Program-made: the position numbers and the translations under genes | Notes under the pieces: generated by a model | Seen by the model: only the letters and a program-made list of their open reading frames with translations | The model's database searches: none | What the model was told of the DNA's origin: nothing | Source of the DNA: a virus | IMG/VR virus record: IMGVR_UViG_3300028422_001962 | Coordinates: 9,413-73,412 of that record | Direction: 5' to 3' (one strand) | Length of the DNA: 64,000 bases | Part shown: piece after piece, positions 11,587-60,714 of the stretch | Position numbering within the stretch: position 1 is the first letter of the stretch | Layout of the letters: each line of letters opens with the position of its first letter

Positions 11587-11599
11587 GAGGATTTTATAT

Positions 11600-13180: not shown

Positions 13181-15920
13181 AGAACCTTATTCGGCGAAAT
13201 CATACTCCTATAACTCAAAATACATTGACAATCGCCTTGCCCTCCGTCCCCCTCAGAAGGAGAGCTTGGAGCGGTTCGCGCGGATTGTGGATATACTCTC
13301 CCTCTCAAAAACACCGAACTTGGATGAGGAACTCATAAAAATCCGTGAACTGTTCCCAACACTCACCAGTTTTGAGCGGGACTTTCCGTCGGTATGCTTC
13401 GCCCTTGCCACGGGCATAGGCAAAACTCGATTGATGGGCGCAATGATTGCCTATCTGCACTACGAGAAAGGTGTCAATAATTATTTTGTGATGGCCCCCA
13501 ACCTCACGATTTATAAGAAGCTGAAAAACGACCTCGGTAACCCGAACAATGAAAAGTACGTGTTTCGAGGTTTAGATAAGTTCGTCAACGCGCCACGCAT
13601 TATCGATGGCGACAATTACGAAGAATTCCGTCAGATGTCGCTGTTTGAAGGCGGCGTTACCATCAACGTCTTTAACATCAGCAAACTGAACTCAGAGAGC
13701 GGACGGATGCGCCGCTTGCAGGAGGTTCTTGGGCAGTCTTATTTTTCGTATTTACAATCCTTGCCCGACCTCTGCATCTTTATGGACGAAAGCCACCACT
13801 ACCACGCCGACAGAGGGTTTGACACCATAAACGAGCTTCACCCAGTCCTTGGTGTGGAACTTACCGCAACACCACAAATTCAAAAAGGCGCACGGAAGAT
13901 CGATTTCAATAACGTGGTGTATGAATACTCTCTTGCTCATGCGCTGAACGACGGGCTTTACGTCAAAGTCCCCGCCGTATTCACTCGCCGGGATTTTCGC
14001 CATGAAGAATATACCCCGCAACAACTTGACCGCGAAAAACTCAACGACGGCATCCGTCTGCACGAAGAAACAAAAAGCAGACTGGATGTGTACGCTCGTA
14101 CCCACGGCAAGTCCATTGTTAAGCCGTTTGTGCTTGTTGTTGCCAAAGATACAACCCACTCTCGGGAAATACGCGAGTATCTCACTTCGGATGCTTTCTT
14201 TCATGGATATTACAAAGATAAGGTATTGGAAATCAACTCGGCACAGCGCGGCTCGGAAAAGGACGAGAACATAGAGCTGCTACTCTCGCTTGAGTTGACC
14301 ACCAATGTAATCGAAATCGTCATTCACGTCAATATGCTCAAGGAGGGCTGGGACGTGACGAACCTCTATACCATTATCCCTCTCCGCGCTTCGGCATCCG
14401 AAACACTCACGGAACAGACCATTGGGAGAGGTTTGCGTTTGCCTTATGGTCAGAGAGCAGGAGTGGATGAGGTTGACAGACTCTCTATCGTCAGTCACGA
14501 CCGTTATCAGGCGATTGTAGACCTTGCTAAAGACCCGAACTCACTTGTCCGTAAGATTTACTACATTGAGGAACAAGAACTTCCCGAAAGCGAAGACGGG
14601 CGCGAAACCGTACCTCTTCCGACAGTTTATGACGCGTTGACCTCCGGCGAGAGCTTCACACAACAGTTGGCGTTTACCCTGCGTGAAACGGCGACGGACG
14701 AATACAAAGCTGAAAAAACGCCCGACCAGACGATGCTTATCGCAAGCATTGTCCAAAGTATAACCGCTAAAACGGTGGTCGAGGTTAACAGGCAGGTTCG
14801 GAATATTAATGCCATTAATGATGAACAAACGCGCAAATGGGTGCATGGCAGTATTGTTACGCAAGCCATACAGCAACTTCCCGAATTTGGGCTAAAAGAA
14901 GAGGACTTAACAGCAGTTGTCACGAAAGCAATCGAAACTTGTGCCCAAGCCCTCACAGAAAACGTCATTCCGATACCGCAGTCAGTCGTTCAGCCCCATA
15001 CCGAAGTTAAGCGTGGATTTTATGACTTCACGCTTGATACGAGCCGTATGCGTTGGCATCCGTCCGACGACACACTCCTCGGCACGGAACTCATGGAGGG
15101 CGGCGAAACCTTTACGCTGGAAACAGGAACAGTTGCATTTGCAAAGATTGATACAGTGGAAAATGAGATTGTCCGACATATTATCGTCCATGATAACGTG
15201 GACTACGCAACTTGTTCAGACCTCATCTATTCACTTATCACAGATGCCAAGCGGCACTTTTTGTCGTACTTGAATGATGAGGAAACGGAAAAAGTCATGC
15301 GCGATCGGCAGCGCACCATCGCTGAAATCATCTACGCGCAGATGAACGAGCATTTTTATAAAGAGGAAGTCAGCTATAGGGCAGCCAATATGCGCCCATT
15401 CACAAGGATTGAACCGAGTTTCGGCGGCAAGTTTAAATCGGATGAGATATATGACTTGCGGACGCCTATGGCGGCATCTGATGTGAAGTCCAAGATATTC
15501 AGCGGATTTAAAAAAGCAGGTCATACGCTGTACAAATTCGACAGTGACACGGAGCGAACTTTTGCAGTCGTGCTGGAGAACGATAATGCCGTTCTTCGTT
15601 GGTTGCGTCCCGCGCCGCGTCAGTTTAACATCTACTGGGGACAAGGCGGCGCGAGCCGTTATGAGCCAGATTTCATTGTTGAGACCGCCGAAACAATTTA
15701 TATGTGCGAACCGAAAGCGAGCAACAAGATGCGAGATGCGGACGTGCTTGAAAAGCAGGAAGCCGCAGAAGAATACTGCCGCGCCGCCAGTGAATTCAAC
15801 ACCGAAAACGGCGGTAAACCGTGGAAGTATGTTCTTATTTCTCACGATGAAATCCGACCGCAGTCGAGTTTTACTTATCTCGCAAAACAAGCTTCGCACG
15901 AGCAGTTATCGATAGAGTAG
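13173..15920 (+). CDS. res: Type III RM endonuclease (Res)
   Basis: LATGIGKT, DESHH, EGWD, QTIGRGLR, C-terminal PDF..EPK nuclease; overlaps mod. Confidence 0.92.
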   Translation: MLREPYSAKSYSYNSKYIDNRLALRPPQKESLERFARIVDILSLSKTPNLDEELIKIRELFPTLTSFERDFPSVCFALATGIGKTRLMGAMIAYLHYEKGVNNYFVMAPNLTIYKKLKNDLGNPNNEKYVFRGLDKFVNAPRIIDGDNYEEFRQMSLFEGGVTINVFNISKLNSESGRMRRLQEVLGQSYFSYLQSLPDLCIFMDESHHYHADRGFDTINELHPVLGVELTATPQIQKGARKIDFNNVVYEYSLAHALNDGLYVKVPAVFTRRDFRHEEYTPQQLDREKLNDGIRLHEETKSRLDVYARTHGKSIVKPFVLVVAKDTTHSREIREYLTSDAFFHGYYKDKVLEINSAQRGSEKDENIELLLSLELTTNVIEIVIHVNMLKEGWDVTNLYTIIPLRASASETLTEQTIGRGLRLPYGQRAGVDEVDRLSIVSHDRYQAIVDLAKDPNSLVRKIYYIEEQELPESEDGRETVPLPTVYDALTSGESFTQQLAFTLRETATDEYKAEKTPDQTMLIASIVQSITAKTVVEVNRQVRNINAINDEQTRKWVHGSIVTQAIQQLPEFGLKEEDLTAVVTKAIETCAQALTENVIPIPQSVVQPHTEVKRGFYDFTLDTSRMRWHPSDDTLLGTELMEGGETFTLETGTVAFAKIDTVENEIVRHIIVHDNVDYATCSDLIYSLITDAKRHFLSYLNDEETEKVMRDRQRTIAEIIYAQMNEHFYKEEVSYRAANMRPFTRIEPSFGGKFKSDEIYDLRTPMAASDVKSKIFSGFKKAGHTLYKFDSDTERTFAVVLENDNAVLRWLRPAPRQFNIYWGQGGASRYEPDFIVETAETIYMCEPKASNKMRDADVLEKQEAAEEYCRAASEFNTENGGKPWKYVLISHDEIRPQSSFTYLAKQASHEQLSIE

Positions 15921-15945
15921 ACACTTCTAAGGAGGGAGTTGCCAC

Positions 15946-17088
15946 ATGAAATTTTTTCACTTATCCGACCTGCATCTCGGTAAGCGTGTCAACGAGTTTT
16001 CCATGCTGGAAGACCAGTGGGACATCCTGCAAAAAATTGTTGTGCTTGCCAAAGAGAATAAACCGCATGCCATCCTCATCGCAGGTGATGTCTACGATAA
16101 AGCTATGCCCATTGTAGAGGCCGTCCAACTATTGGATAGATTTCTTGTTTGGCTCAACGAACTGGGAATTGCGGTGTTTATAGTTTCCGGCAACCACGAC
16201 AATGCTGAGCGTGTGGCGTTCGGCGCGGAATTGTTGAAAAACAGTAACGTGCATATTGTGCAGTCGTATAATGGCAAAATGAATCCTATAACTCTCTCCG
16301 ACAGATATGGCGATATCAATATCTGGATGCTACCGTATCTCAAGCCGTCCCTGGTCCGCAAGCACTTTCCTGACAGGGATATAACTACATACTCGAACGC
16401 CGTATCCGCAGCTTTGAGCAATGCGAATCTTGACACTTCAGTAAGAAATGTGCTGATTGCCCACCAGTTTGTTACCGGGGCAGTTACAAGCGAATCTGAA
16501 GAAATCTCTGTCGGTGGTTCGGAGAATGTGGATGGCTCGGTTTTTGATGGGTTTGATTACGTTGCATTAGGGCATATTCACCGTCCACAGCAGATCGGTC
16601 GAGAAACCCTTCGATACAGCGGAACCCCGCTCAAATATTCGTTTTCGGAAGCAAGCCATACAAAATCTGTGACAGTCGTTGATATGGATGTCAAGGGCAA
16701 GATAAAAATCACTGAATTGCCGCTTGTACCGCTCCGTGATATGCGTGAAGTTCGCGGCACATACAACGAGATTATGAACCGTAACAGCTACCGGGGTACG
16801 AACACGGAGGACTATATCCATATTGTGTTGACAGATGAGCACGATGAGCCGGATGCGATGTCAAAACTGCGAAACGTCTACCCTAACCTGATGCGCTTGG
16901 AGTACGATAACAGACGAACACAGGCAGCGAGTTCTCTCGAAACGGTAGCGTCCACGGAAAAGAAAACGCCATCTCAGTTATTCGGGGAACTGTTCGAAAT
17001 GCAAAACGGACAGCCGATGAGTGAAGAGCAATCAAAATATGTAACAAGCCTATTCAACGAAATCTGGGAGGAGGTGTCGAACTCATGA
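15946..17088 (+). CDS. sbcD: SbcD/Mre11 nuclease
   Basis: SDLHLG, AGDVYD, GNHD, AHQFV, LGHIH, YSGTPLKYSFSE. Confidence 0.93.
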   Translation: MKFFHLSDLHLGKRVNEFSMLEDQWDILQKIVVLAKENKPHAILIAGDVYDKAMPIVEAVQLLDRFLVWLNELGIAVFIVSGNHDNAERVAFGAELLKNSNVHIVQSYNGKMNPITLSDRYGDINIWMLPYLKPSLVRKHFPDRDITTYSNAVSAALSNANLDTSVRNVLIAHQFVTGAVTSESEEISVGGSENVDGSVFDGFDYVALGHIHRPQQIGRETLRYSGTPLKYSFSEASHTKSVTVVDMDVKGKIKITELPLVPLRDMREVRGTYNEIMNRNSYRGTNTEDYIHIVLTDEHDEPDAMSKLRNVYPNLMRLEYDNRRTQAASSLETVASTEKKTPSQLFGELFEMQNGQPMSEEQSKYVTSLFNEIWEEVSNS

Positions 17089-19853
17089 GACCTCTCAAAC
17101 TGACCATGTCTGCCTTTGGCTGTTATGCAGACAAACAGACCGTTGATTTTCAAACGCTTGGCAATGAAGGGCTATACCTCATTACTGGTGATACTGGAGC
17201 GGGAAAAACAACCATATTCGATGCCATTACCTTCGCACTCTACGGGGAAACAAGCGGTGACAACAGGAAAGCAGAAATGCTGCGTAGCAAGTACGCACAA
17301 GAGAATGCAGAAACCTATGTTGAGCTTTCATTCCAATACCATGATAAGGTCTACCTTATCAAACGTAATCCGGCTTATGTGCGGGCAAAGCAACGTGGTG
17401 AAGGCACAACAGAGGAAAAGGCTGATGCCGAACTGCACCTACCAGACGACCGCATTGTGACGAAACTTAGAGAGGTCAACACCAAGGTCGAGGAAATACT
17501 CGGTATCAACCGTGAGCAGTTTGTCCAGATTGCGATGATAGCACAGGGTGAATTTCTGAAAGTCCTTCACGCCAGTACCGAAGACCGAATCGAGATATTC
17601 CGTAAGATTTTTTATACGGACGCCTACAAAACATTTCAAGACAGAGTTAAGAAGGACGCGAACGGACTCGTTGCAGAAATCAAAGAGCAACGGCGCGGTT
17701 ACGACTTTAGCCTCGGTAATGTTCAAGTAGATGCGAACGACGAAGAAAACACGCAAAAACTCTCCGATGCCAAGTCTGGGCTCTTATTGGCGGGTGATGT
17801 CATCGAATGGCTTACACTAATTATTTCTGCCGACGATGAAGCATTCTCCGCAAATGAGAAATTGTTGGAGAAAGTGGGCGTCAAACTGGCTGAAATAAAC
17901 CAGAGGGTCGGGCAAGCCGAGCAGGATAAGAAAGCGCGTGACGCTTTAAAAGCTGCGGAAGACCGTCTCCCTTCTGAAATGGCGGCTCAGAATGAAGCTG
18001 AATCCGTTTTAAACGCGGAAAAAGCTAAACAGCCTGAATACGAGTCCGTAAAAACTCAAATTTCTGAAATAGAGCGGTCGTTGACTAAATATCAGGAACT
18101 GCAAAATCTTATCGATTCGATAAAGTTAAACGAGGAAAAGTTATCTGTCGAAAAGCAAAATGCCGATAACTTACAAAAGAAACAAACCTCCGATACATCT
18201 GCGCTTAAGACCGCAAAAGAGGAACTCAAGTCTTTAGTGGATGCCGAAGTCATAGCCGAAACATTGCGTAGCCAACAAGGAAAGCTGACCACAAAGCAGA
18301 GCAGTATTGGTTCGTTAACCGCTTTGCTCGAAGGTTATAGCAGACTGCTTTCTGAACTCAAAGCGGCACAAGACGATTACACCGAAAAGTCTACAATTGC
18401 AAAGACTAAGCGGGATGGATATGAAACTCTTAACAAGGCGTATCTCGATGAGCAAGCGGGGATATTGGCAGTAGAACTGAAAGATGGACAACCCTGCCCA
18501 GTCTGCGGTTCTACCGAGCATCCTGATCCTGCGGTTTTATCTGTTAAGGCTCCTACAAAGGCGGAACTTGATAAGGCAAAGAAGGCCGCTGAGGCTGCAG
18601 AATCAGAAATGACTACTGCCAGTGGCTTGGCAAGCAACTTGAACGGGCAAAGCGGTACTAAGCGAGACGAAATCATAACCGCTGCAACGACGTTATTGGG
18701 AGAAATCTTGTTCGATAATATCCCGTCGGTTTTGGAGAGTGCGTTAACTGAGGTCAAAACAGGACTTGCGGAAGTCAATGAGAAACTCGCCGAGCAAGAG
18801 AAAAGAATAGCTCGAAAAAAGGAACTTGAAGAAGCGATACCTACTTCCGAGAGTAACCTTATTAAAGTCGGCGAGGCTCTTGGTAAGTCCAAAGAACAAG
18901 TCGCTGCACTGACCACGCAGATTGACGCCGACAGCAAAACAAGGGACAAGCAGGCAGCGGAACTCAAATTTAAGAATGAGGCAGATGCCAAAGCGGAAAT
19001 CACCGCTCTCAGCACCAAAAAGAAAGGCTACGAAGATGCCCTCCAAACCGTCCAGACCGCATATGATACAGCAAAAACGAAAGTGAACGGCACAGCAACG
19101 GAGATACAAACATTGCAAGCACAGCTTGGTGATTCACAACCTTTGGATTTGGATGCACTAAAACAAGAAAAAGGCACTATTGAAAGCACACAGCGTGGAT
19201 TGGGCGAAATCAACCGTGTTGTCGGCACACGAAAGTCTGTCAACCAAACTGCGTTGAACGACATTAACAAAACGGCTAAAGCCATCATGGAGCTCGAAGT
19301 TCGTTACAAGTGGTTGAAAGAAATTTCCGACACAGCAAACGGAGATATTAGCGGCAAAGAAAAAATCAAACTGGAAACCTATATCCAAGCAGCGTACTTC
19401 GACAGGATAATTGCGCGGGCAAATATTCGCCTTCTTCAGATGTCAAATAGCCAGTTCGAGTTAAAGCGGCGAGATGTAAGCGGCAAGCAGGGACAAAGCG
19501 GCTTAGACTTGAATGTCATTGACCACTACAATGGTACAGAACGCGATGCAAAAACGCTCTCAGGTGGTGAGTCGTTCATCGCCTCTCTGTCGCTTGCACT
19601 TGGTCTTTCGGATGAAATACAGAACAATGCTGGAGGCATACGTCTTGATTCGATGTTTGTTGATGAGGGCTTCGATTCATTAGATGATACGAAACTGTCA
19701 CAATCAATACAGGCGTTGATGAGTATATCGCAGACCAATCGCCTTGTTGGGATAATATCACATGTTACTGGGCTTGATGAAAAAATAGGTCGCAAAATCG
19801 TCGTGATCAAAGACCGTACGGGTGGTAGCAGAGCCGAAATACTGGTGGGATAA
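17085..19853 (+). CDS. sbcC: SbcC/Rad50 SMC-like ATPase
   Basis: GDTGAGKT, coiled coils, zinc hook CPVCGS, LSGGE, FVDEGF, IISH. Confidence 0.93.
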   Translation: MRPLKLTMSAFGCYADKQTVDFQTLGNEGLYLITGDTGAGKTTIFDAITFALYGETSGDNRKAEMLRSKYAQENAETYVELSFQYHDKVYLIKRNPAYVRAKQRGEGTTEEKADAELHLPDDRIVTKLREVNTKVEEILGINREQFVQIAMIAQGEFLKVLHASTEDRIEIFRKIFYTDAYKTFQDRVKKDANGLVAEIKEQRRGYDFSLGNVQVDANDEENTQKLSDAKSGLLLAGDVIEWLTLIISADDEAFSANEKLLEKVGVKLAEINQRVGQAEQDKKARDALKAAEDRLPSEMAAQNEAESVLNAEKAKQPEYESVKTQISEIERSLTKYQELQNLIDSIKLNEEKLSVEKQNADNLQKKQTSDTSALKTAKEELKSLVDAEVIAETLRSQQGKLTTKQSSIGSLTALLEGYSRLLSELKAAQDDYTEKSTIAKTKRDGYETLNKAYLDEQAGILAVELKDGQPCPVCGSTEHPDPAVLSVKAPTKAELDKAKKAAEAAESEMTTASGLASNLNGQSGTKRDEIITAATTLLGEILFDNIPSVLESALTEVKTGLAEVNEKLAEQEKRIARKKELEEAIPTSESNLIKVGEALGKSKEQVAALTTQIDADSKTRDKQAAELKFKNEADAKAEITALSTKKKGYEDALQTVQTAYDTAKTKVNGTATEIQTLQAQLGDSQPLDLDALKQEKGTIESTQRGLGEINRVVGTRKSVNQTALNDINKTAKAIMELEVRYKWLKEISDTANGDISGKEKIKLETYIQAAYFDRIIARANIRLLQMSNSQFELKRRDVSGKQGQSGLDLNVIDHYNGTERDAKTLSGGESFIASLSLALGLSDEIQNNAGGIRLDSMFVDEGFDSLDDTKLSQSIQALMSISQTNRLVGIISHVTGLDEKIGRKIVVIKDRTGGSRAEILVG

Positions 19854-19863
19854 GGAGATTTCT

Positions 19864-21189
19864 ATGTTTTACTGGAAAGGCAAGACTGAAAACAATCTGA
19901 CATTGACTGAAGAACTGCTTTCATGTGGCTCAATTAAATCAATTCAAATAGCCACAGCTTTTATCTCCGCCGAAGGTGTTGCAATTGTGCGTCAACTCCT
20001 GGAGAAGTATCAGCTTTCAAAGGAACGCATCTTGCTCTATTTATCCGAGCAATTCTCGTCCGACAAACCGGGGGATTTGCTTGAACAGTTATTTGAAATT
20101 AGCACTGTAAAGGTTTTGTTTGACCAGAGCTTTCACGCCAAGGTGTTCTTGCTTTCCGGAGTAGAAACCAAACTTATTTATGGCTCGTCGAATTTAACGG
20201 CGGGCGGTTTTACCCGAAACATGGAATTTGATTATATTGGAATACCCTCCAAAGAAGAATTAGAGAAAGTCCTTGAATTTTTCAGATATTGCGACAGGCT
20301 TTCAACTGCGGTCAGCAGTGAAGTGATAACTTACTATAAGGAACTGCAACCTGCACTTGATGAGTTAAATCAAACACAGTGGTTTCTAAAAAAACGTCTT
20401 ACTGGTTTTTCTAAAAAAGAAGATCCATTTCGTGAAGATGATTATGATTTGTCAGACAGCTACTTTTCTTTTGAGGACTACGAGACATTTTTTTCACGCA
20501 ACGCTCAAAGTAACGATGCCCAAATCCGCCACCGTAGATTAAGCGTTCAACAAAAAATGCTTGCTGTCCACCAAATGATATACCCTAAAATTAGAAGTCT
20601 TGGTATTGCACATCATAAACGAGAGAAAAATATCACTTCAACCGTCGAACCAAACATATATAACCACCATTCCGTGGGCTGGATTGGCGTTCGGTACGGG
20701 AAATTACCGCATGAGATTGACTGGCTTAACGCTGGACGCGAAAGTGATGACGATGCTTATGGCTTCCAAAAGCATGGTTGCTTACAATTCAGCATCAACA
20801 GTGGTGGGTTTGATATAAATCTGTTTTTAGCAGTTCGAAATGATGCGATAGACCGCATGAAACTCAGTGAGCATCAATTTAAAATGCTGTTTGAACAGCG
20901 CCCGCAGATTGAAACTGAAATGAGAAACCTTGTGGGACACGGCTTTGAATGGCGAATAGAAAATGGGGCAGAACCCTTTCGAGTTGATAACGACCCAGTC
21001 GAAAATTTCTGTGACTGGTTTAAGGTCAATGACTCGGATGGATACGAATCATATTTGATAAAATATTACGAGCCAGGCGATCCGATATTAAAAAGCAAAG
21101 AGAGCATTTCCGCTGAGGTTATTCGTGTCATGACGATGCTCCAACCACTATATGACACTATGGTATGGCGGCCGCTGAAAAAGTCGTAG
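19864..21189 (+). CDS. PLD-family (HKD) nuclease-domain protein with uncharacterised C-terminal domain
   Basis: ATAFIS, FHAKVFL, GSSNLT..GF..NME; ATG 19864 with AAGGAG. Confidence 0.8.
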   Translation: MFYWKGKTENNLTLTEELLSCGSIKSIQIATAFISAEGVAIVRQLLEKYQLSKERILLYLSEQFSSDKPGDLLEQLFEISTVKVLFDQSFHAKVFLLSGVETKLIYGSSNLTAGGFTRNMEFDYIGIPSKEELEKVLEFFRYCDRLSTAVSSEVITYYKELQPALDELNQTQWFLKKRLTGFSKKEDPFREDDYDLSDSYFSFEDYETFFSRNAQSNDAQIRHRRLSVQQKMLAVHQMIYPKIRSLGIAHHKREKNITSTVEPNIYNHHSVGWIGVRYGKLPHEIDWLNAGRESDDDAYGFQKHGCLQFSINSGGFDINLFLAVRNDAIDRMKLSEHQFKMLFEQRPQIETEMRNLVGHGFEWRIENGAEPFRVDNDPVENFCDWFKVNDSDGYESYLIKYYEPGDPILKSKESISAEVIRVMTMLQPLYDTMVWRPLKKS

Positions 21190-21342
21190 GAGAAAGAATC
21201 AAATACCAACATGCGGTAAAAGTATCAACCTATTTTTGTTGGATGGAAAACCGATGGGGTGCATTGCATGCACTCTTGTCATCTGGACTGGTGTAGTGTA
21301 TTGAATTGCATAGGAAACTGACGGACACTGCAGGTTCGGTGT

Positions 21343-21474
21343 TTGAAGATAAGGAGCAAGGTCTCACTCGAAGTGCAAGACGAAACCAATGACGGTTTCT
21401 CGCAGTAGGCTGTGCGGTCGGCGCCTGAAAACTGCCGGACGCTGCGGGTGCGTCAGAGCGGATTTGAGAAATTA
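21343..21474 (+). pseudogene. Degraded fragment resembling the C-terminus of DUF499 ATPases
   Basis: KVSLEVQDETNDGFSQ*AVRSAPENCRTLRVRQSGFEK with an in-frame stop; resemblance from memory. Confidence 0.45.
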
Positions 21475-21502
21475 AGCAATTGCAGTACAGGAGGAAAGTT
21501 CA

Positions 21503-24478
21503 ATGGAATTCAAAAAGGAAGCCATAGGCAATAACTACTTAGCTTATTTTCCCGTAGTTGATGAGTTTCCAAGTGCAGACGAAGTAGTCTGCACTTGGAA
21601 ACAAAACGTCTTTGATTATGTTGTCGAAACAGAATCGACTAAAGGTTTTCGCGCCGCGCAGTTAGGCGCAATTTTTGCGGTAAAATCCCATTGGACTATT
21701 TCCGAAGCCCCTGTAACTGTTGTTATGCCGACCGGTACAGGAAAAACAGAAACTATGTTTGCAACAATTGTGTCTGAATGCCGTAAACGCACACTTATCG
21801 TTGTTCCCAGTAATTTACTTCGCCAACAGACTGTAGAGAGATGCTTAAAGTTAGAAAGGCTGCGTGAGTTCAACGCAATAAGTGATAAATGCCTTAACCC
21901 AGTTATCGCTTGTCTCAATTCATCTCCGACGAATAAGAATGAACTAAAAAACATTATCGAGAGAAGTAATGTTATTATTTCGACAGCTTCGCTTCTAAGC
22001 GGTTTTACTGACGAATATTTTAATGTCTTGTCTGAACTCTGCGATACATTGATTGTTGACGAAGCGCATCATACTCCTGCAAAATCGTGGCATAGAACAA
22101 AGCTGAAGTTTGCTGGTAGGCTTTGCATCCAGTTTACAGCTACACCATTTCGAGATGATGGGCAAAAAATTGACGGCAAGATAATATATAACTTCCCATT
22201 GTCACTTGCCCAAAAACAAGGCTATTTCAAGCCAATTAACTTTTATCCGATTCTTGAGTTTGACTACGATAAAAAAGATTTAGCCATTGCTAATAAAGCT
22301 GTAGAAATTCTTGAAACTGATTTATCAAATGAATATCCCCATTTGCTCTTAGTTCGCGCGTCAACCAAAAAGCGAGCTGAAGAACTATATAATCTTTACT
22401 GTCAACATTTTGATAAGCACAGTCCAGTTCTTATCGTCAGTGGTCAAAAAGGAAATAAGCAGTCGATTGCCGATGCAAAAAGCGGAAAAGCAAAAATCAT
22501 TGTTTGCGTAGATATGTTTGGAGAGGGCATAGACATTCCTCAATTGAAGATTTGCGCCATTCATGACAAGTATAAATCAATTCCAATAACTATCCAGTTT
22601 ATCGGGCGTTTTGCACGCTCGCAAGGCAATCTTGGTAATGCTTCGGTCGTAGCTAATATTGCAGATGATGATATCGAAGATGCCTTGCAGGAATTGTATT
22701 CACAAGACGCGGATTGGAGCGAACTCCTAAAGAAAATTTCTGAAGATAAAATAAGCAAAGAGGAGCGGTTGCAAGAGTTAGTCAGAGACTTTACGGGAAA
22801 AGAAGAAATTCCTATTTCACAAATTCGACCCAAAGTCAGTATGTTTATGTATCATACTGACGACAAAAATTGGAATTGGGGGAACTGGGATTCAGTTTTC
22901 AATCCCGAACACAGTCATTGCTGTGTTAACCAAAAGGCTAAGATATTAATTATCACGGAACGCGATATAAGTTCTGTTGACTGGACAACCAGTAAAGACA
23001 TAGTTGACCTTACTTGGCAATTACACATTCTATACTGGAATGAAAAGAAGAAAGTCTTTTTCATCAACACTACCGACAAAGGATTAGCTGACCGTTTTGC
23101 CTCAGCAATATTTACTTCCAAGAAACGAAAAGCAGATGAAGATTTATTCAGATGCTTATCAGGTGTCAACCGACTAAAACTTGCAACCGTAGGTCTGAAG
23201 CCTAAGAACGGAGGGCATATCAGGTATCAAATGTATGCCGGTATCGATGTAGAAGCTGGACTCACTGAAGCACAAAAAGTGAATGTGAGAAAGTCAAATC
23301 TATTCGGTGTAGGGTATGAAGACGGCAAAGATATTAGTATTGGGTGTTCTTATAAAGGTACTGTTTGGGCAAAGTGGGTAGAGACATTGGATTACTGGAT
23401 TGAATGGTGTAATAAGGTGGCCGACAAAATTCTGGACAGCAGTATTAGCGTAGAGGAAATCTTAAAAGGCGCACTAATCCAAACCGTTGTCACGAGTCGA
23501 CCTGACGCAGTACCATATGGAATTGACTTCCCTATCGAATTATATTTGAGCAGCTCATATTACTTAAAAGCTGGGGTCATGGATGACTATCTGATAAACT
23601 TCGATATTGCATTAACAGTAGAAGATAACTCGTCACCACTAACCTTTTCGGTGTCAAATGGTCAAATGAGCGAGGAATTTACTCTTGAAGTGTCAGATAA
23701 ATATAGTGACGGTTTTATGGTGTCGCACAAAAGCGGGGATTTAATATTGGTAAGCGACAGGAAGAAGGAACGGTATTTATCGGAATATTTCTGCGAAAAC
23801 CCGCCTGAAATACGGTTTTGCGACCAGTCATCGCTTGATGGAAATCTATTAACGCGAGCAAAAATTCATGATACAAAATTTAGCAATGGCAACATCACTG
23901 TGCTTAACTGGGATGGGGTTGACATAAAGAAGGAATCACAATGGCAGACTGGCATAGGTGTAAAAGCAAATGATAGTATCCAATATAAAGTGATTTCTAT
24001 GCTGAAATCAACGAATAAATATGCCGTTATATTTGATGATGATGACAAGGGCGAAATCGCCGATGTTGTTGCAATAATTGAAGAGCCAACAGCAATCAGG
24101 TTTGAATTGTACCATTGCAAGTTTTCTGGCGGAGGTGAAGCAGGCTTCCGAGTTAAGGATTTGTATGAGGTTTGCGGACAAGCGGAGAAGTGTGTGAACT
24201 GGTATCCTCGCATAGACAAACTTATAGACAGGTTGATTGAGAGAGAAAGCAAACGACTGTCAAAGCCGCAAGGTACTCGCTTCGAAGTAGGTGATGGCAA
24301 GACACTTCAATCGCTCAAAAAGAAACTTAAATTTTTTAGACCTGAATTTAGTGTATACATTGTACAGCCGGGTGTTGACAGCAAAAGAATAACACAACCT
24401 ATGCACGATGTACTATGTAGTGCTTCATCTTATCTTAAAGAAACATATGCCATACAGTTGCAGCTGATTTGTTCTTGA
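21503..24478 (+). CDS. SF2 (ResIII-like) helicase fused to a C-terminal PD-(D/E)XK-like nuclease
   Basis: MPTGTGKT, DEAH, TATP, EGIDIP, QFIGRFAR; C-terminal DDDKGEIADVV..LYHCK. Confidence 0.82.
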   Translation: MEFKKEAIGNNYLAYFPVVDEFPSADEVVCTWKQNVFDYVVETESTKGFRAAQLGAIFAVKSHWTISEAPVTVVMPTGTGKTETMFATIVSECRKRTLIVVPSNLLRQQTVERCLKLERLREFNAISDKCLNPVIACLNSSPTNKNELKNIIERSNVIISTASLLSGFTDEYFNVLSELCDTLIVDEAHHTPAKSWHRTKLKFAGRLCIQFTATPFRDDGQKIDGKIIYNFPLSLAQKQGYFKPINFYPILEFDYDKKDLAIANKAVEILETDLSNEYPHLLLVRASTKKRAEELYNLYCQHFDKHSPVLIVSGQKGNKQSIADAKSGKAKIIVCVDMFGEGIDIPQLKICAIHDKYKSIPITIQFIGRFARSQGNLGNASVVANIADDDIEDALQELYSQDADWSELLKKISEDKISKEERLQELVRDFTGKEEIPISQIRPKVSMFMYHTDDKNWNWGNWDSVFNPEHSHCCVNQKAKILIITERDISSVDWTTSKDIVDLTWQLHILYWNEKKKVFFINTTDKGLADRFASAIFTSKKRKADEDLFRCLSGVNRLKLATVGLKPKNGGHIRYQMYAGIDVEAGLTEAQKVNVRKSNLFGVGYEDGKDISIGCSYKGTVWAKWVETLDYWIEWCNKVADKILDSSISVEEILKGALIQTVVTSRPDAVPYGIDFPIELYLSSSYYLKAGVMDDYLINFDIALTVEDNSSPLTFSVSNGQMSEEFTLEVSDKYSDGFMVSHKSGDLILVSDRKKERYLSEYFCENPPEIRFCDQSSLDGNLLTRAKIHDTKFSNGNITVLNWDGVDIKKESQWQTGIGVKANDSIQYKVISMLKSTNKYAVIFDDDDKGEIADVVAIIEEPTAIRFELYHCKFSGGGEAGFRVKDLYEVCGQAEKCVNWYPRIDKLIDRLIERESKRLSKPQGTRFEVGDGKTLQSLKKKLKFFRPEFSVYIVQPGVDSKRITQPMHDVLCSASSYLKETYAIQLQLICS

Positions 24479-24617: not shown

Positions 24618-24817
24618 ATTGACTTGTTTCCCAGAACGGATAAAAGCATAAAAGTTCAGTGGACATGTTTCCACGCACGGATAATGCCCATAAAAACCAC
24701 TATCGACATATTCCCACGAACAGAAAATCAGCAAAACACATACCAGACATCAATCTGATGCTATCGTTCCACGTTGAGACGGTCGTATTGATAACAAGGG
24801 TTAACAAGCAAGTGTAG
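24618..24817 (+). mobile_element. Element junction 1: att-like repeats plus displaced 3' tail of a rumA/rlmD-type gene
   Basis: Three (I/V)D(L/M/I)FPRT-like 21-mers, then CACATACCAGACATCAATCTGATGCTATCGTTC, then HVETVVLITRVNKQV* (24770-24817); homologous to 52082-52274. Confidence 0.8.
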
Positions 24818-24940
24818 TAAGAAGCCTGTAAACAAAGGCTTTCAAAGGTTTGAGAGTGAAAAATCGAAGTGATAAAAACGTGAAAATATCTGTTCGCGGG
24901 AACAAGTCCAAAGTCATGATTTTGAACGTGACAGAGCGAT

Positions 24941-25054
24941 TTAGATGTCGGTGCTTAGTGAGTGGTTGGGAATGGTGTGCAGCGCTACGCTGATGTCCTC
25001 GGCAAGCTGCTTTCTCTGCTTGCCTGTGATGTTGTAGGGTATTGTCATTTTCAT
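24941..25054 (-). pseudogene. Truncated N-terminus of a conserved mobile-element protein (MKMTIPYNITGKQRKQL...)
   Basis: GGAGG RBS; stops after 37 aa close to the junction. Confidence 0.45.
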
Positions 25055-25364: not shown

Positions 25365-25577
25365 ATGGCTACCTCATATAACAAGCTATGGAAACTGCTC
25401 GTAGACAAGAAAATGAGCAAGGCCGACTTGCGAAAAGCCTCCGGTGTGTCTCCTAACACGATGACAAAACTGCGCCGGGACGAGCCGGTCATGCTGAGTG
25501 TGCTGGACAAGATATGTAAAACGTTGGATGCCAATTATGGGGACATCGTTGACTATGTGCCGGATGATACTTTTTAA
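25365..25577 (+). CDS. Cro/C1-type HTH regulator
   Basis: TSYNKLWKLLVDKKMSKADLR..VLDKICKTL. Confidence 0.9.
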   Translation: MATSYNKLWKLLVDKKMSKADLRKASGVSPNTMTKLRRDEPVMLSVLDKICKTLDANYGDIVDYVPDDTF

Positions 25578-30629: not shown

Positions 30630-31082
30630 TTACAGTGCCGAAAAGTCCCGTAGTATGGGGATTTCTGCTGTATCGAAGTCTTTTTTCTCGTAGAAAACGG
30701 GTATGCTCTTTTCCTTAAGCTGCCGGATGTATTTCAGGCAATCCAGGGTATTGCGGGCAAACCTGCTGATGGATTTTGTAATGACCATGTCGATGCTGCC
30801 CGCCATGCACTCATCGATCATTCGGTTGAATTCTTCACGCTTCTTTGTATTTGTACCTGAGATGCCGTCATCTGCATAAATTCCTGCCAGTGTCCAATCC
30901 GGATGGCCGTTGATGTAAGCTGTGTAATGCTCAATCTGCGCATCGTAGCTGGTAGCTTGTTCATCACTGTCGGTTGAAACCCTACAGTAGGCAGCAACAC
31001 GGAGTTTTGGCTTTTCTTCATCACTATCTTTTCGGATATGCTTCCTTGCTGGAAGCACCGTAACAGTTCTATTTGTTGCCAA
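30630..31082 (-). pseudogene. Truncated large serine recombinase (catalytic domain only)
   Basis: [23 protein letters not shown]; similarity to 60715-62340 stops after VFYEK, followed by an unrelated 16-aa tail. Confidence 0.85.
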
Positions 31083-33980: not shown

Positions 33981-36257
33981 ATGACGCCAAAAATGTCATC
34001 CGCAATCAAAAAAATAACGCTCAATACCCCCACCTTCAACGGAGACGTGGTTGAGCCGACATTTATTAATTTCTTTTACGGCAGAAACGGCGCTGGCAAA
34101 TCCACGATAGCACAGGCTATCGGCGCAAATACCGGCCTACTTTGGCAGGACGGCAAGTCAGCGGCGGATTATGATATTTTGGTTTATGACCAAGACTTCA
34201 TCAACAACAACCTGCAGAATTACGGGAACCTCGCAGGCGTGTTTACTGTATGTGATACAAATATCGAAATTCAAAAACAGGTGGAACAGAAAACGGCTGA
34301 AAGAGCCTCATTTGATGAGCAGTACCGTACTCTTACCACTGCAGCGGGAAGCAAACAGGATGCTATGACCGCCTCTTTGAGCACTTTTCAGAATGCTTGT
34401 TGGGAAAAGTCGAAGTCGATTCGGGACGCATTCGATGAGGCGATGAAGGGCAAAAAGCGAATTAACTTGTTCGCAGAATCTGTTTTATCCGTTCCGACAC
34501 CCGCTGAGCATGACTTAGCCGCGCTGAAAAAAATGTACGATATTGCATTCGATACTTCAGCAACAGTATATAAGCTCTTTTCCAGAGCTGGCAGCTCCAC
34601 CACATATGGAAAGTTACCCGGAAAAGACCTCATGGATAAAGCCATTGTAGGTAGTAGTGAGTCAACATTCACGGCATTTATGAAGGCCCTTCATGCAACC
34701 GACTGGGTACGGCAAGGACACGATCACTATGTGGCTGGAGCCGACGGAAAATGTCCGTTCTGCCAGCAGAAACTACCGGCGGGTTTTGATGATGAAATTG
34801 CGGCTTGTTTTGATGCACAGTACCAGCAAGACATTGACGATATTACGGAATTTCAAGCTACATATTCACGTGAGACGGGTGCCATTTTAGACACGCTCCA
34901 AACAAACCTGCAGGATGTGCTTGCTACCGTAGATTTGGTGGAATACAAGGATAAAATTGCACTATTAAAAAGCAGTATCGAAATCAACAAGCAGCGCATC
35001 TCCGGTAAAGTTAAGGAACCCACCTCTATCGTGGCGCTTGAGGATACGGATTCACTGCTCATAGAAATAGGCACTCTCATTGATGATATCAACCGCCAGA
35101 TCAAGGCCAACAACGATGTCGTAAATGACAAGAAGGCGAAAAAGGCAGCTTGTGTCAATCAGGTGTGGGAGCATCTTGCTTTCATGTTGAGCCGTGATGT
35201 CGCTACTTATAAGGCTGAACAGGCAAAGCTAAAAAAAGAAGCTGATGACCTGACAGCCAAAGCGACTGCTGCACGTCGCGCTTTTAATGCCGCAACGGGC
35301 GATATTGCCGAACTTAACAAACAGGTAGTCAATACCCAAGCAGCTATTGCCAGCATAAACGCTTTACTAAAAGACTCCGGATTTCAAGGCTTCAGCCTCC
35401 GTGAGAAGACGGGAGTTCCGAATGTGTATGAGGTTGTACGTGAAGACGGAAGCATTGCGGTAAAGTTGAGTGAAGGTGAGCGTAATTTTATTGCATTTTT
35501 GTACTTCTACAACCTTGTTCGTGGCAGCCATAGCAGCGAAGAAGTAAAGGACAAAATCGTGGTTATCGACGACCCGGTTTCCAGTATGGACAGCAACACA
35601 CTGTTTATTGTTAGTGCTATCATTCGAGAAATGGTCGAAGTTTGCTATAACAACACCGACTATCGCGACAACACGGTTCAGGGCGACTACATCAAACAGA
35701 TATTCATTCTGACGCACAATGTGTATTTTCATAGGGAGATTACCTATCGGCAGGTCAGTCGCTACAAGAGCGTGTCATTTTACATGATACATAAAACAGA
35801 CAACGTGTCGACAGTCAAGCTCTGTGACAAAGAGAGTGAAGGATGTCCGACTGAAAAAGAAAATTACAACCCGGTTCAAAACTCATATGCGGCTCTGTGG
35901 GATGAATTCAGAGTATTGAAGTCCACAATACCGCTGCTCAATGTAATACGGCGTATTTTGGAGTATTATTTTCTGCAGCTTTGCGGATACGAGGGAACGG
36001 ACATCCGTAAGGTTGTTTTGGAAAAGAACAAAGATAAATTTGTCACCCCGGTGGAAGGCGGTCAGCCGGATTATGAGAAATACCAGCTGGCTTCGTCGAT
36101 GCTGACATATATCAATAACCCGCAGGGTATCAGCGATGGTTTGAACTATGTCGAAGATTGCGTCGATGCCGGGCAATACAAAACAGTTTTCAAGCTTATC
36201 TTTGATTCGCTTGGACAGATACAGCATTACAATATGATGATGGGGCAAGAGGCATAA
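33981..36257 (+). CDS. RloC-like (AAA_13) ABC ATPase with zinc hook
   Basis: GRNGAGKS, CPFCQQ, LSEGE, VIDDPVSS, LTHN; next to type I RM. Confidence 0.85.
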   Translation: MTPKMSSAIKKITLNTPTFNGDVVEPTFINFFYGRNGAGKSTIAQAIGANTGLLWQDGKSAADYDILVYDQDFINNNLQNYGNLAGVFTVCDTNIEIQKQVEQKTAERASFDEQYRTLTTAAGSKQDAMTASLSTFQNACWEKSKSIRDAFDEAMKGKKRINLFAESVLSVPTPAEHDLAALKKMYDIAFDTSATVYKLFSRAGSSTTYGKLPGKDLMDKAIVGSSESTFTAFMKALHATDWVRQGHDHYVAGADGKCPFCQQKLPAGFDDEIAACFDAQYQQDIDDITEFQATYSRETGAILDTLQTNLQDVLATVDLVEYKDKIALLKSSIEINKQRISGKVKEPTSIVALEDTDSLLIEIGTLIDDINRQIKANNDVVNDKKAKKAACVNQVWEHLAFMLSRDVATYKAEQAKLKKEADDLTAKATAARRAFNAATGDIAELNKQVVNTQAAIASINALLKDSGFQGFSLREKTGVPNVYEVVREDGSIAVKLSEGERNFIAFLYFYNLVRGSHSSEEVKDKIVVIDDPVSSMDSNTLFIVSAIIREMVEVCYNNTDYRDNTVQGDYIKQIFILTHNVYFHREITYRQVSRYKSVSFYMIHKTDNVSTVKLCDKESEGCPTEKENYNPVQNSYAALWDEFRVLKSTIPLLNVIRRILEYYFLQLCGYEGTDIRKVVLEKNKDKFVTPVEGGQPDYEKYQLASSMLTYINNPQGISDGLNYVEDCVDAGQYKTVFKLIFDSLGQIQHYNMMMGQEA

Positions 36258-36325
36258 GCCCCTCTCATGGGACAGCCAATGGCGTAGAATGATAACGGGC
36301 AAAAAGCCTGAGTGGAGGAAATTTT

Positions 36326-38431
36326 ATGGTTGATAAGCAAATAATAGATGCAATGTGGGATGATTCCCCCATTGATGTGTCTACAGAGGTAAACTTTATC
36401 TGGTCGATCGCAAACAAGCTGCGCGGTCCGTACCAGAGCGATAAATATAAGGATGTCATCATACCGATGACCGTCATCCGCCGTTTTGAGTGCGCTCTTG
36501 CACCTACCAAAAAGGCGGTCGTTGATCAGTTTAATGCCAATCCGAGCTATCCGCCGAAAGCGATGTATCGCATCTCCGGCTTTCAGTTCTACAATACCAG
36601 CGGTTATGATCTCGCTGAGCTGGTGAACGATGCCGACCACATTGCCGCCAATTTCAAAAGCTATATTCAGGGCTTTTCACCTAATGTGCAGGAAATTCTG
36701 CTGTCAGCCGAAAAGGGTCTGGATTTCTATAAGCAAATCGACAAGATGGATAAAAACAATCGCTTGCTCAGTGTTGTCAAGGCGTTTTCAGAACTCGACT
36801 TGAACCCTCGTACCATCGACAACGTGAAAATGGGATACATATTCGAGGAGCTCATACGTAAATTCTCTGAAAATGCCGAGGCTGGCGACCACTACACGGG
36901 CAGAGATATCATTAAGACGATGGTCAATATTCTGCTGGCAGAGGGCTGCGACGACATTTTTGATGATGGCAAGGTTATCACGATACTCGACCAAGCCTGC
37001 GGCACAGGCGGTATGCTTTCTACTGGCTATAACTTCATTAAACGTTATAACCCCTCTGCCGACGTCCGGCTTTTTGGGCAGGAAATCAACCCGGAATCTT
37101 ATGCGATGTGCCTTTCCGAAATGCTCATTAAAGGTCAGAACTCCGAGAACATCTGTTATCAAGACACCATGAAAGCCGACTGCTTCAAGGGAACAGCGAT
37201 GCGTTTCGTGCTCGAAAATCCGCCGTTCGGTACTGCGTGGGGTGGCAAGGACGCTGCCGAGGGCGTTGAAACTGCAGTAAATGATGAATTCAAGAAGGGC
37301 TATGACGGACGCTGGGGTGCGGGGCTTCCCGGTTCCGGTGATATGCAGATGCTGTTTTTACAGTCTGCAATTGACAAAATGGACAAGCATAACGGACGCG
37401 CTGCCATCATTCAAAACGGCAGTCCTCTGTTTTCCGGTGGCACTGCTTCTGGCGAGAGCCAGATCCGCCGCTGGCTACTGCAAAGCGACCTGATTGAAGC
37501 AATAATTGCGCTGCCGACAGATCTTTTTTACAATACCGGCATCGCTACATATATTTGGGTGTTATCGAAAAATAAGCGCGCCGAGCGCAAGGGTAAAATT
37601 CAGCTCATTGACGCTTCCAGCATTTTTCATAAGCTCCGTAAAGCTCTGGGGAACAAGAAAAACGAGATTGCCCCGGAAGACCGCTCCGACATTACACGGT
37701 TGTATGCGGACTTCAAAGAAAACGAGCTATGCAAAATCTATAACAACGAAGAATTCATTTATCGAGAGTATACCGTGATGCAACCGCTCCAACGTAGCTA
37801 TGCCATCACTGAAGAACGCATCCAGCAGATGCTTTCAAAAGGCGCACTCAGTTCTTTATATGACGAGGGCAAAGTCAGCGAACTGGAAAATTCCGAAGAA
37901 GAGCTGTCCGGCAAGGACGTAAAGAAGTTGGAGAACTATCAGAACAACAAGCCTGTGTTTGATAGCATAGTTGCCGCACTGGAAGCCGCCGTTTCTGAGG
38001 AAGTCTACCTTTCCCCGGCTGCGTTTCTGCCTGAGGTAACAAAGGTACTGTCTTCCGCAACTGCAGACAAGAAGCTAATTGAGAAAATTGCGGACGGTCT
38101 TTCCGTCATGGATAAGAACGCTGAAATTCAGCGTGACAGGAAGGGCGAAATCATCTATGACAAGGAATCGAAGGATACCGAAATTGTAAAATATGAGGAG
38201 GACATTGACACCTATATGGCGCGTGAAGTCCTGCCGCACATCCCCGATGCGAAAGCATTCTTCGAGGAAGATTTGAGCAAGAAAAAGCCGGTCATCAAGA
38301 CCGGTGCGGAGATTCCATTTACCCGCTATTTTTACAAATATCAGCAGCCTACCCCCAGTGAAGAGCTGGAGGAACGCTTTACTACGCTTGAGCAATCAAT
38401 CAATGAGCGCGTAGCAAAGCTGTTCGATTAA
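36326..38431 (+). CDS. hsdM: Type I RM methyltransferase
   Basis: FIWSIANKLRG, DQACGTGGML, NPPF, FYNTGI. Confidence 0.93.
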   Translation: MVDKQIIDAMWDDSPIDVSTEVNFIWSIANKLRGPYQSDKYKDVIIPMTVIRRFECALAPTKKAVVDQFNANPSYPPKAMYRISGFQFYNTSGYDLAELVNDADHIAANFKSYIQGFSPNVQEILLSAEKGLDFYKQIDKMDKNNRLLSVVKAFSELDLNPRTIDNVKMGYIFEELIRKFSENAEAGDHYTGRDIIKTMVNILLAEGCDDIFDDGKVITILDQACGTGGMLSTGYNFIKRYNPSADVRLFGQEINPESYAMCLSEMLIKGQNSENICYQDTMKADCFKGTAMRFVLENPPFGTAWGGKDAAEGVETAVNDEFKKGYDGRWGAGLPGSGDMQMLFLQSAIDKMDKHNGRAAIIQNGSPLFSGGTASGESQIRRWLLQSDLIEAIIALPTDLFYNTGIATYIWVLSKNKRAERKGKIQLIDASSIFHKLRKALGNKKNEIAPEDRSDITRLYADFKENELCKIYNNEEFIYREYTVMQPLQRSYAITEERIQQMLSKGALSSLYDEGKVSELENSEEELSGKDVKKLENYQNNKPVFDSIVAALEAAVSEEVYLSPAAFLPEVTKVLSSATADKKLIEKIADGLSVMDKNAEIQRDRKGEIIYDKESKDTEIVKYEEDIDTYMAREVLPHIPDAKAFFEEDLSKKKPVIKTGAEIPFTRYFYKYQQPTPSEELEERFTTLEQSINERVAKLFD

Positions 38432-38443
38432 GGCGGTGATTTT

Positions 38444-39742: not shown

Positions 39743-40140
39743 AAGTTGAATTTGCTGATTGTGAATTAGGGATTGGTGTTGCGTTATATGTCTCTGGTAC
39801 CGAATTTTTGAAAGCCGATAAGTCAAAAGATGAATTTTGTAGTCTTGCTGCAGCAACAGATGCTTTTTATAATCAACAAGGACTTGACTACCATATTGGC
39901 TCAACAGACTATGATACGGTAAAACAATGGGTCAAAGCATCCGGCGCAGTAATATTCGCTATTGAATCAGACCGTTATGGACACAGAAAGTGGTATGAAA
40001 TTTATGTGTCTACAGATAATCGCTACACCAGAATTATCTGGTCTGATGATGGCAGAGAGTATTATTCAAAAGATAGCTCAGATTTGAAAAAGACTCCGAC
40101 TAATACTACAACAAGGCAGAAAGGAGGTCGTGACGTATGA
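39739..40140 (+). CDS. Hypothetical protein between hsdS and hsdR
   Basis: 4-nt overlaps with both neighbours; AAGGAGG RBS. Confidence 0.7.
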   Translation: MKVEFADCELGIGVALYVSGTEFLKADKSKDEFCSLAAATDAFYNQQGLDYHIGSTDYDTVKQWVKASGAVIFAIESDRYGHRKWYEIYVSTDNRYTRIIWSDDGREYYSKDSSDLKKTPTNTTTRQKGGRDV

Positions 40141-43106: not shown

Positions 43107-43117
43107 GGAGGGGTATC

Positions 43118-47010: not shown

Positions 47011-47035
47011 TCTTTAACCCGGGAGGAGGTGCATT

Positions 47036-52081: not shown

Positions 52082-52274
52082 ATTGACTTGTTTCCGAGAA
52101 CGGATTAAAACAAAATAAAAGTGTGGATATATTTCCACGAACGGAGATTATCCCAAAAACCATCATCGACCTATTCCCGAGAACGATAAATCAGCAAACC
52201 ACATACCAGACATCAATATGATGCTATCGTTCCATGTGGAGAGTGTTGTATTGATAACAAGAAAAGATAGGTAA
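52082..52274 (+). mobile_element. Element junction 2: att-like repeats plus displaced 3' tail of a rumA/rlmD-type gene
   Basis: IDLFPRT/VDIFPRT/IDLFPRT-like 21-mers, the conserved end sequence, then HVESVVLITRKDR* (52233-52274). Confidence 0.8.
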
Positions 52275-52498
52275 ATGTTTAGAAAGCCTTGAAATAAAGG
52301 GGTTTCGAGGATAGGGTAGAAACTCTGGCTCTCGGATTTTTTTGCTGCCACCTCCTCCATCTCACCAAGCCATAGGAAAGTTAAGTAGCAAATATAATAT
52401 ATATTTATATAGCAAAGAGAAAAATATATATTATACATTGAAATGTTTATACAAATTTGATATACTTAATTCAAACCAATAACAGGGGAGTAAGGACG

Positions 52499-58735: not shown

Positions 58736-58780
58736 GAAATCGTGTTGATTGTGGTATAATAAATGAAAGGTGGTGCTGAT

Positions 58781-59614: not shown

Positions 59615-59724
59615 AGAAAAATGTGCTTTGTGAACAATTCACAAGGCGCATTTTTTGTGACTTTAGTAATAGATATTCCGTACGGAATGTGGTATTGTTG
59701 TAATGAAAATTAGGAGGCGATAAA

Positions 59725-60706: not shown

Positions 60707-60714
60707 AGAAAGGA

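Follow-up and report, generated by a model that had tools for sequence, protein, structure and literature searches.

The 3' end of rumA attracts several families of mobile elements. The vanG elements, ICE-r, streptococcal ICEs and the elements of the Dehalobacter rumA hotspot are described as inserting near this 3' end with a very short crossover and as stacking in tandem, and each new rumA ICE gives an open reading frame that is fused to the 5' part of rumA (PMC4120198, PMC4701971, PMC11578063). As far as their main descriptions go, these reports agree with the initial annotation of the sequence analysed here, in which rumA was named as a target of serine recombinases, and stacking at this gene is itself already known (PMC4120198, PMC11578063). 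In rumA ICEs of the ICE-r and vanG type, a single recombinase gene is described at the right end, attR lies in or beside this gene and the C-terminus of RumA is altered. Streptococcal ICE triplets consist of three adjacent homologous recombinase genes (external, middle and internal) in one orientation relative to the target, with cargo between the triplet and the end; the targets described for them are mutT, traG and hsdM (PMC4701971).

A functional likeness exists to SCC, where the paired large serine recombinases CcrA and CcrB use a different rRNA methyltransferase gene, rlmH instead of rumA, and preserve its 3' end. SCC forms composite islands in which some members lack recombinases and a site is repeated at every junction; there, a junction repeat is one integration-site sequence rather than a phased triplet in a single arm. 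For CcrAB, recombination of attP x attP and relaxed site pairing have been reported, and canonical serine integrases are described as being satisfied with sites of 40-50 bp, without auxiliary DNA (PMC3783163). The canonical enzymes, such as those of LI/A118, phiC31 and Bxb1, are composed of Resolvase, Recombinase and zinc-ribbon domains and use a core of ~50 bp with imperfect inverted half-sites. Phased sites flanking a core are found in lambda-like tyrosine integrase systems and as sites II and III of Tn3/gamma-delta res. Those of lambda are shared differently among attP, attL and attR and are unlike the lambda core sites, and the accessory sites of res are full dimer sites.

We analysed a stretch of 64,000 nt (the window), which is part of contig C317 of a 497-contig genome bin (3.5 Mb). 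Its elements and their relatives share with the known rumA elements the insertion near the rumA 3' end, the very short crossover, the stacking and the fused open reading frame. Unlike in rumA ICEs, a recombinase triplet lies 1.3-5 kb inside the left end and faces rumA, the right ends consist of cargo followed by repeats, the restored rumA tail is almost canonical, and a phased triple repeat lies in the right arm; the published descriptions of rumA ICEs do not mention such a repeat (their supplements may differ). The triplet has the gene arrangement of the streptococcal ones; its target is rumA, and its middle member (143 aa) is non-catalytic, lacking the catalytic and the zinc-ribbon domains. 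The large recombinases and the core resemble those of the canonical phage integrases, whereas the conserved region extends over ~150 nt of right arm and ~140 nt of left arm and includes four extra half-site-like motifs.

Stacked elements and their junctions

The window appears to consist of mobile elements that were inserted successively at the 3' end of a rumA-family (uracil-5) rRNA methyltransferase gene. The first, E1, is present with its prophage-like right part and defence cargo (1-24777, plus strand; Pfam, PADLOC); its left end lies beyond the contig start, and a VapE-like primase is encoded upstream of the window on the contig. The prophage genes recognized by Pfam are those for PolA, an Enc34-type SSB, a DUF2800 nuclease, sigma and an M78 peptidase. 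The defence cargo, within 8713-24478, comprises a DrmD-like SNF2 helicase, a type III methyltransferase and restriction enzyme, an SbcD-like nuclease with an SMC/LmuB-like ATPase, a PLD-domain protein and a 991-aa helicase.

E2 is a 27.5-kb decayed defence island (24772-52240, plus strand; Pfam, PADLOC) in which Pfam detects neither an intact recombinase nor phage genes. Its cargo includes an SPFH protein and, at 33981-49380, a PDC-S06 (AAA_13) ATPase, a type I RM system (HsdM, HsdS, HsdR), McrB with an EVE domain together with McrC, a VWA protein, and a weakly DarG-like macro-domain protein whose 438-aa partner belongs to no known family. Small HTH genes are found near the left end of E2 (25365-25577). 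A remnant on the minus strand (30630-31082) encodes the first ~138 aa of the family's external large serine recombinase, with the Resolvase domain only; it is 80% identical to residues 6-143 of LSR_E, the external recombinase on contig C418 of the bin, and 95% identical to the orthologue of locus L033.

The third element, E3, begins after a truncated left end at 52.33 kb and is oriented opposite to the others. Its distantly related recombinase triplet (57188-62340, plus strand; Pfam) is 40-43% identical to that of C418 and is interrupted by a KilA-N gene, the order being LSR (57188-58735), KilA-N (58763-59614), a recombinase-domain-only middle member of 295 aa (59725-60612) and LSR (60715-62340). 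An amidoligase gene follows the triplet (region 57188-63481). A k-mer comparison gave no convincing matching repeat architecture for E3, no ends and no target of this element were found, and host-type genes are found again from ~C317:73.4 kb, about 10 kb further along.

Both junctions of E2 are marked by short repeats, as the initial annotation had reported. Three direct 21-mers precede junction 1 (GAC at 24621, 24662 and 24705; spacings of 41 and 43 nt) and three precede junction 2 (GAC at 52085, 52126 and 52168; 41 and 42 nt), and an inverted 21-mer is located at 24891-24911. All 7 copies translate as (I/V/L)D(L/M/I)FPRT, and the arrays do not keep one frame (GAC modulo 3 is 0, 2, 0 at junction 1 and 2, 1, 1 at junction 2). 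A degenerate D-x-F-P-R-T pattern has exactly 7 matches in the window versus 0 in 100 dinucleotide-preserving shuffles, and the two arrays can be aligned as homologous over their full length. Scored with a weight matrix (PWM) for the extended motif of 26 nt, arm repeats 1 to 3 of E1 on the plus strand reach 36.5 bits (24618-24643, containing the 21-mer 24618-24638), 31.7 bits (24659-24684) and 36.7 bits (24702-24727), those of E2 on the same strand 34.9 bits (52082-52107), 22.9 bits (52123-52148) and 29.9 bits (52165-52190), and the inverted repeat in the left (P') arm of E2 30.4 bits (24886-24911, minus strand). Rfam and consensus-site scans of the array revealed no known RNA family and no promoter or terminator consensus; the sole Rfam match (20.5 bits, chance level) lies outside the array.

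Arm repeat 3 of E1 stands 41 nt before the core P half-site (24746-24771, plus strand), as it does in at least 76 of 80 relatives. This half-site scores -57 bits against the arm-repeat matrix and begins with GACATCAAT, to which ATTGAT(G/A)(T/A)C in the tail forms an imperfect inverted repeat. It is followed by the strand-exchange window CGTTGA (24772-24777, plus strand), which falls in the His-Val-Glu codons and is defined by junction comparisons, and a reading of the sequence identifies a putative replacement C-terminus of rumA, HVETVVLITRVNKQV plus stop codon (24770-24817, plus strand), brought by the left end of E2. The same type of tail unit also directly follows intact host rumA at 8 loci and on C418. 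Past its stop codon lies a hairpin, AGCCT...AGGCT (24822-24842, plus strand), whose conservation emerges from left-end and junction comparison and which a consensus scan did not score as a terminator. At junction 2, alignment places the core P half-site of E2 with its crossover window (52235-52240) at 52209-52240 and a rumA-like tail with a truncated family left end at 52233-52330 (both plus strand), of which the tail, HVESVVLITRKDR plus stop codon, takes up 52233-52274. There the hairpin is retained, and the inverted repeat and all DNA beyond are replaced; the alignment with three other junctions loses its match at ~52330, and a pattern scan of the window finds no inverted copy at this junction. 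Each of the two tails begins 47 nt past the third 21-mer, which agrees with the rumA-like tails first noticed after the arrays.

The same arrangement is found on two more contigs of the bin, C418 and C362. On C418, an intact rumA-family 3' end (PF05958 match at C418:61469-61690) reads AVDMFPRTTHVECVVLMSRAKE up to the stop codon, with the junction following VDMFPRTT; an inverted copy is found ~100 nt on, and beyond it lie 56 kb of prophage, after which a triple array and a pseudo-tail precede a second inverted copy. C362 has a divergent two-copy array followed by the contig end, and its spacings of 39 and ~30 nt indicate looser phasing. In a Pfam-based search for rumA 3' ends in 40 genomes, the native rumA of the bin was found uninterrupted on contig C157 (G000:C157:2138-2674) with the tail HHIETIVSLCR before the stop codon; native rumA in the bin's taxonomic family ends ...FPQTHH(L/I/M)E.... 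The double 21-mer was found in 0 of the 39 other genomes of this family. Since a family-type rumA is intact on C157 and none of these relatives has the double 21-mer, C317, C418 and C362 may stem from a different organism represented in the bin (6.5% contamination); alternatively, the rumA of C418 may be a paralogue.

Position of the crossover and composition of the left ends

The 21-mers had been regarded as copies of the integration-site sequence, situated at the element ends. This is only partly the case: the arrays do belong to the right ends but lie inside them, ~65-70 nt to the left of the crossover, and the inverted copy belongs to the next element, ~115-140 nt inward from its left end. 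Comparison of junctions puts the exchange in the His-Val-Glu codons (24772-24777 and 52235-52240), which rules out a crossover at the 21-mers. By the same comparisons, the 21-mer of rumA is to be viewed as attB's left arm.

With a pattern on the conserved left end we collected 32 loci, whose genomes are very diverse and mostly of anaerobic Firmicutes type, and in these loci the unit of HVE tail, stop codon, hairpin, inverted repeat and left end is nearly invariant. What lies upstream of it varies: an intact host rumA with one DMFPxT arm (8/32 loci), motif arrays (4/32, and also L029, with two copies further upstream), unrelated right ends which still keep the HVE codons (9/32), the 3' end of a group II intron inside the tail (4/32) or other DNA without HVE codons (2/32); the remaining 4/32 have too little upstream sequence to be classified. 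Thus, in 21 of the 32 loci, those that keep the HVE codons, the DNA differs upstream of CAYGT. From the other side, diverse host-like tails start directly after ...GTNGA in 44 of 70 array-bearing right ends. Moreover, contigs with the E2 left end from four other sequencing studies diverge just before 24769-24772; what they have there instead is one of two distinct host rumA arms, a right end of another type, or unrelated DNA. Left-end, right-end and contig breakpoints therefore converge within CGTTGA (24772-24777). Identity switches within CAYGTNGA in many genomes and runs, as in a conservative insertion with a very short shared crossover. Either GT or GA, both of which are invariant, is likely to be the central dinucleotide of CGTTGA, and GA is described as the target of the vanG and ICE-r elements in rumA (PMC4120198). 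A search of Logan contigs for excision products recovered breakpoints and no circular junction, a result in which contigs cannot show absence.

The position of the inverted copy is less constant than that of the direct copies: among 26 tandem junctions that have one, it ranges from +112 to +254 relative to CAYGT, and it is +137/138 in 15 of the 26. Just inside it, most left ends of the family carry a second, unrelated triple repeat, (A/T)TTAGAT in a unit of ~16 nt repeated in 30-nt steps (+42, +72 and +101/102 from the left-end motif in L018-L049). It is present at C418:61276-61336, E2 keeps one copy only (24930-24945), and it is probably a binding site of another protein. At L035, L039, L044 and L045, the 3' end of the group II intron (domain V/VI-like) is joined inside the rumA-tail mimic. 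The joining point is the same across several unrelated genomes, and a loose end at position 24795 of the window was seen in run X8, which suggests intron homing into the conserved attachment sequence. L029 has an insertion of ~230 nt between tail and hairpin, with short repeats of its own (ATGACAC / GCGTCAT type).

Conservation of the repeats and their relation to the rumA arm

A pattern on the core half-site matched 93 metagenome and 6 viral stretches, from which, together with this bin, we obtained 80 distinct right ends with at least 160 nt of upstream sequence. Having been collected via this pattern, they represent one lineage and are not independent. By the weight matrix, 64 of the 80 right ends contain three copies, 12 contain a pair and the last 4 a single copy. 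Counted from the core half-site, the nearest copy stands at -41 and the next at -83/-84, and the outermost is found at -114/-115 in 44 cases and at -124/-125 in 20, so that the spacings are 41, 42-43 and then 31 or 41 nt, and the two length classes are 10 nt, about one helical turn, apart. With these spacings, the three direct copies come to lie roughly on one helix face. The initial annotation had expected number and spacing to vary if the arrays were mere scars; the fixed, phased spacings and the predominance of three copies indicate that they are not. Conservation sets in within ~5 nt of copy 1, and the 60-mers upstream of it fall into 46-49 clusters among 59 sequences, which marks copy 1 as the apparent outer edge of the conserved right end. 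Between copy 3 and the core half-site, conservation comes close to that of the motif (1.23 vs 1.38 bits), and near this anchor it could in part be hitch-hiking on the search pattern.

The motif measures 26 nt, T.GAC.T.TTCCC..GAAC.GA.AA. Among 189 copies, 185-188 agree at positions such as G0, A1, T4, T6, T7, C9, C10, A15 and C16, and 167-181 at T-2, G13, G18 and A19, which the seed pattern did not require; invariant positions with up to 1.95 bits stand beside positions with 0.2-0.6 bits. To measure how this information is distributed over codon positions, copy 3 was taken at a fixed offset in all 80 sequences, with no motif requirement. Third positions of the rumA codons carry 0.95 bits, compared with 1.38 for first and 1.69 for second positions (permutation p = 0.004). 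The variable positions of the motif are thus mainly third codon positions of rumA, in agreement with the wobble pattern proposed initially. A coding constraint behind this period of three is ruled out, since the frames differ between copies and since TGC, TGT or TGA replaces the Arg codon in 22 of the 80 third copies.

We then ran the weight matrix over the complete 3.5-Mb bin, where array copies reach 23-37 bits and inverted copies 29-30 bits; inverted copies elsewhere have a median of 20.7 bits (23 distinct left ends). No site of at least 20 bits exists in the bin outside these junctions. The rumA arm of C418 scores 17 bits and that of the native, uninterrupted rumA on C157 9.7 bits. The eight rumA arms that were actually used as targets range from -15 to +24 bits. 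Recognition of the rumA arm may therefore be of little importance, since strongly deviating arms, such as those of L033 (-15 bits) and L048 (-11 bits), are still in use. The core P and P' half-sites, at -57 and -59 bits, do not resemble the arm repeats by this matrix. Sequence comparison thus separates two classes of sites, the core half-sites (GACATCAAT / ATTGATGTC) and an arm class made up of the repeats, the inverted copy and the less well matching rumA arm. The best copy is identical to the resident rumA arm at 19 of 21 positions. The view that the repeats are wobble-variant copies of the target holds in so far as the motif is related to the rumA site; it does not hold further, as the repeats have a 26-nt consensus of their own, with conserved bases that the targets lack. 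In the excised circle, all four arm copies would point toward the crossover. The length of the motif matches the 25-mer half-site in the structure of the LI integrase, as that structure is described (PMC3783163).

Recombinases and the possible function of the repeats

The complete element on C418 has tail, holin and amidase genes, followed by genes for LSR_I (520 aa), a 143-aa protein and LSR_E (527 aa). The three recombinase-type genes all point toward rumA, and their order is the same in L018, L033 and the IMG/VR provirus G040. Resolvase, Recombinase and zinc-ribbon domains are present in the 520- and 527-aa proteins and in those encoded at 57188-58735 and 60715-62340 of the window. The 143-aa protein shows a weak match to the Recombinase domain (24.2 bits) and has no Resolvase domain and no zinc ribbon; the family does encode a non-catalytic protein with a recombinase domain, as had been suspected. 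It has 1643 homologue clusters at 90% identity, the best 120 of which are 137-161 aa long, and its fold model is poor (mean pLDDT 51.5). Homologues that are 76-82% identical and labelled 'recombinase' occur in Dehalococcoides (P0037, P0039, P0050), and the family thus reaches beyond Firmicutes.

Orthologues of the external recombinase (72-88% identity) are encoded 1.3-5 kb inside 12 of the 32 left ends, all from other genomes, and the 143-aa gene is seen in 3 of these 12, where the loci often end too early to show it. None of the 24 PF00589 matches in the bin, indicative of tyrosine recombinases, lies on C317, C418 or C362. The E3 triplet belongs to a different, opposite-oriented element. At three loci, the right end of the neighbouring rumA element contains one recombinase gene only, and the 21-mer array is found in 0 of these 3. 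Right ends of single-recombinase rumA elements at L021, L022 and L034 have a direct repeat of their own, ATAGCCTA, at positions -15 and -109 to -121 relative to the HVE codons, and repeated motifs in the right arm may therefore be more general.

We propose that insertion would be carried out by the two large serine recombinases together with the 143-aa domain-only protein. The left end of each element would bring a new rumA tail, which would keep the gene whole. The elements stack at rumA because the junction keeps a rumA arm and a rumA-like tail and would thus remain a usable target. The repeats themselves we consider, at about even chances, to be arm-type accessory binding sites of the attP region. 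They would be bound by a subunit that reads the rumA arm, either one of the recombinases or the domain-only protein, the latter being a candidate for the arm-site binder, and the bound sites would build a higher-order complex on attP, attL and attR. Such sites could solve a problem of discrimination: after integration, attL would be similar to attB and attR similar to attP, so that the types of half-sites alone could not separate products from substrates. The arm sites would tell them apart, since attP would have them in both arms, attR would have the triple array, attL the inverted copy and attB none, and their distribution would set directionality in a manner like that of the arm sites of lambda integrase. 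It is possible, if doubtful, that paralogous subunits realize a heterobivalent, lambda-like logic, in which one class reads the core and the other the rumA arm and the four arm sites, and in which the distribution of arm sites sets the direction without a conventional directionality factor. The likeness to lambda is functional only; the enzyme class differs, as there is no tyrosine recombinase on C317, C418 and C362, and whereas lambda arm sites are unlike its core sites, the arm motif here resembles one arm of the target.

Other readings of the repeats have to be weighed against these data. Phased direct repeats beside a core are typical of excisionases and Cox-type factors, and another element-encoded DNA-binding protein, either an excisionase-like directionality factor or a regulator, might bind them, the likeness to rumA being a leftover of a captured target. 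The second triple repeat of the left arm, which makes further proteins in this region probable, and the small HTH genes near the left end fit such a protein. We nevertheless think it unlikely, since the motif is asymmetric and with 26 nt has the size of a serine-integrase half-site, since every copy keeps the polarity of a half-site toward the crossover, and since the invariant positions of the target arm recur in the motif; moreover, the directionality factors known for serine integrases work, to our knowledge, via the integrase and not via DNA. Three direct repeats and one inverted repeat with A-rich spacers also recall the iterons of replication origins or cosB-type packaging sites, and the elements are phage-like. 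That the repeats serve such another process and resemble rumA by chance is extremely improbable, given the 19 of 21 identities between the best copy and the resident rumA arm, the always fixed distance from the attachment core and the persistence of the repeats in E2, which has no phage genes.

The repeats could also have no function at all and be fossils of a captured rumA arm, duplicated in tandem and passively inherited in a lineage that spread recently. Shared ancestry is indeed to be expected of right ends that were retrieved via one conserved core half-site, and even the decayed E2 still has its array. Passive inheritance is quite unlikely, as neutral-looking positions are near saturation while their neighbours are invariant in 185-188 of 189 copies, conservation starts sharply at copy 1 beside unrelated cargo, the length variants differ by 10 nt and the extended consensus is also preserved on the opposite arm, in the inverted copy. 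A last possibility is that the copies are spare docking sites suited to rumA variants in other hosts, or, as the initial annotation had considered, mimics which soak up the recombinases of competitors. Many different elements do compete for the rumA site, as described also for other rumA elements (PMC11578063). This reading is very unlikely, since the copies are without the crossover sequence CAYGTNGA that every junction keeps and are thus not complete sites, since they share one consensus, the variable codon encoding Q, W, N, Y, R or H in hosts and being NGA/NGC in the repeats, and since an element inserted at a repeat was found in 0 of the 80 right ends; nothing specific speaks for the mimic variant.

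The interpretation as arm-type accessory sites bears on how serine integrases are viewed. Conserved, phased repeats outside the core suggest a departure from the rule that a site of 40-50 bp suffices. We found no description of repeated half-site-like motifs in the attP arm of a serine integrase in the literature, where supplements may hold further details on att sites. As far as we found, the phased arm repeats would therefore be a variant of serine-integrase attachment site that has not been described before. Genome engineers value large serine integrases highly, since two short sites, with no accessory DNA, are believed to be sufficient for them. If our interpretation is true, an abundant natural family would add a layer of control to serine integrases, which could act on direction, choice of partner or the mobilization of recombinase-less islands, and would allow a direct test of such control. 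The same family builds stacks of defence islands at rumA in many anaerobic Firmicutes, and a motif that tolerates wobble would be a way for an element to target a protein-coding site across distant hosts.
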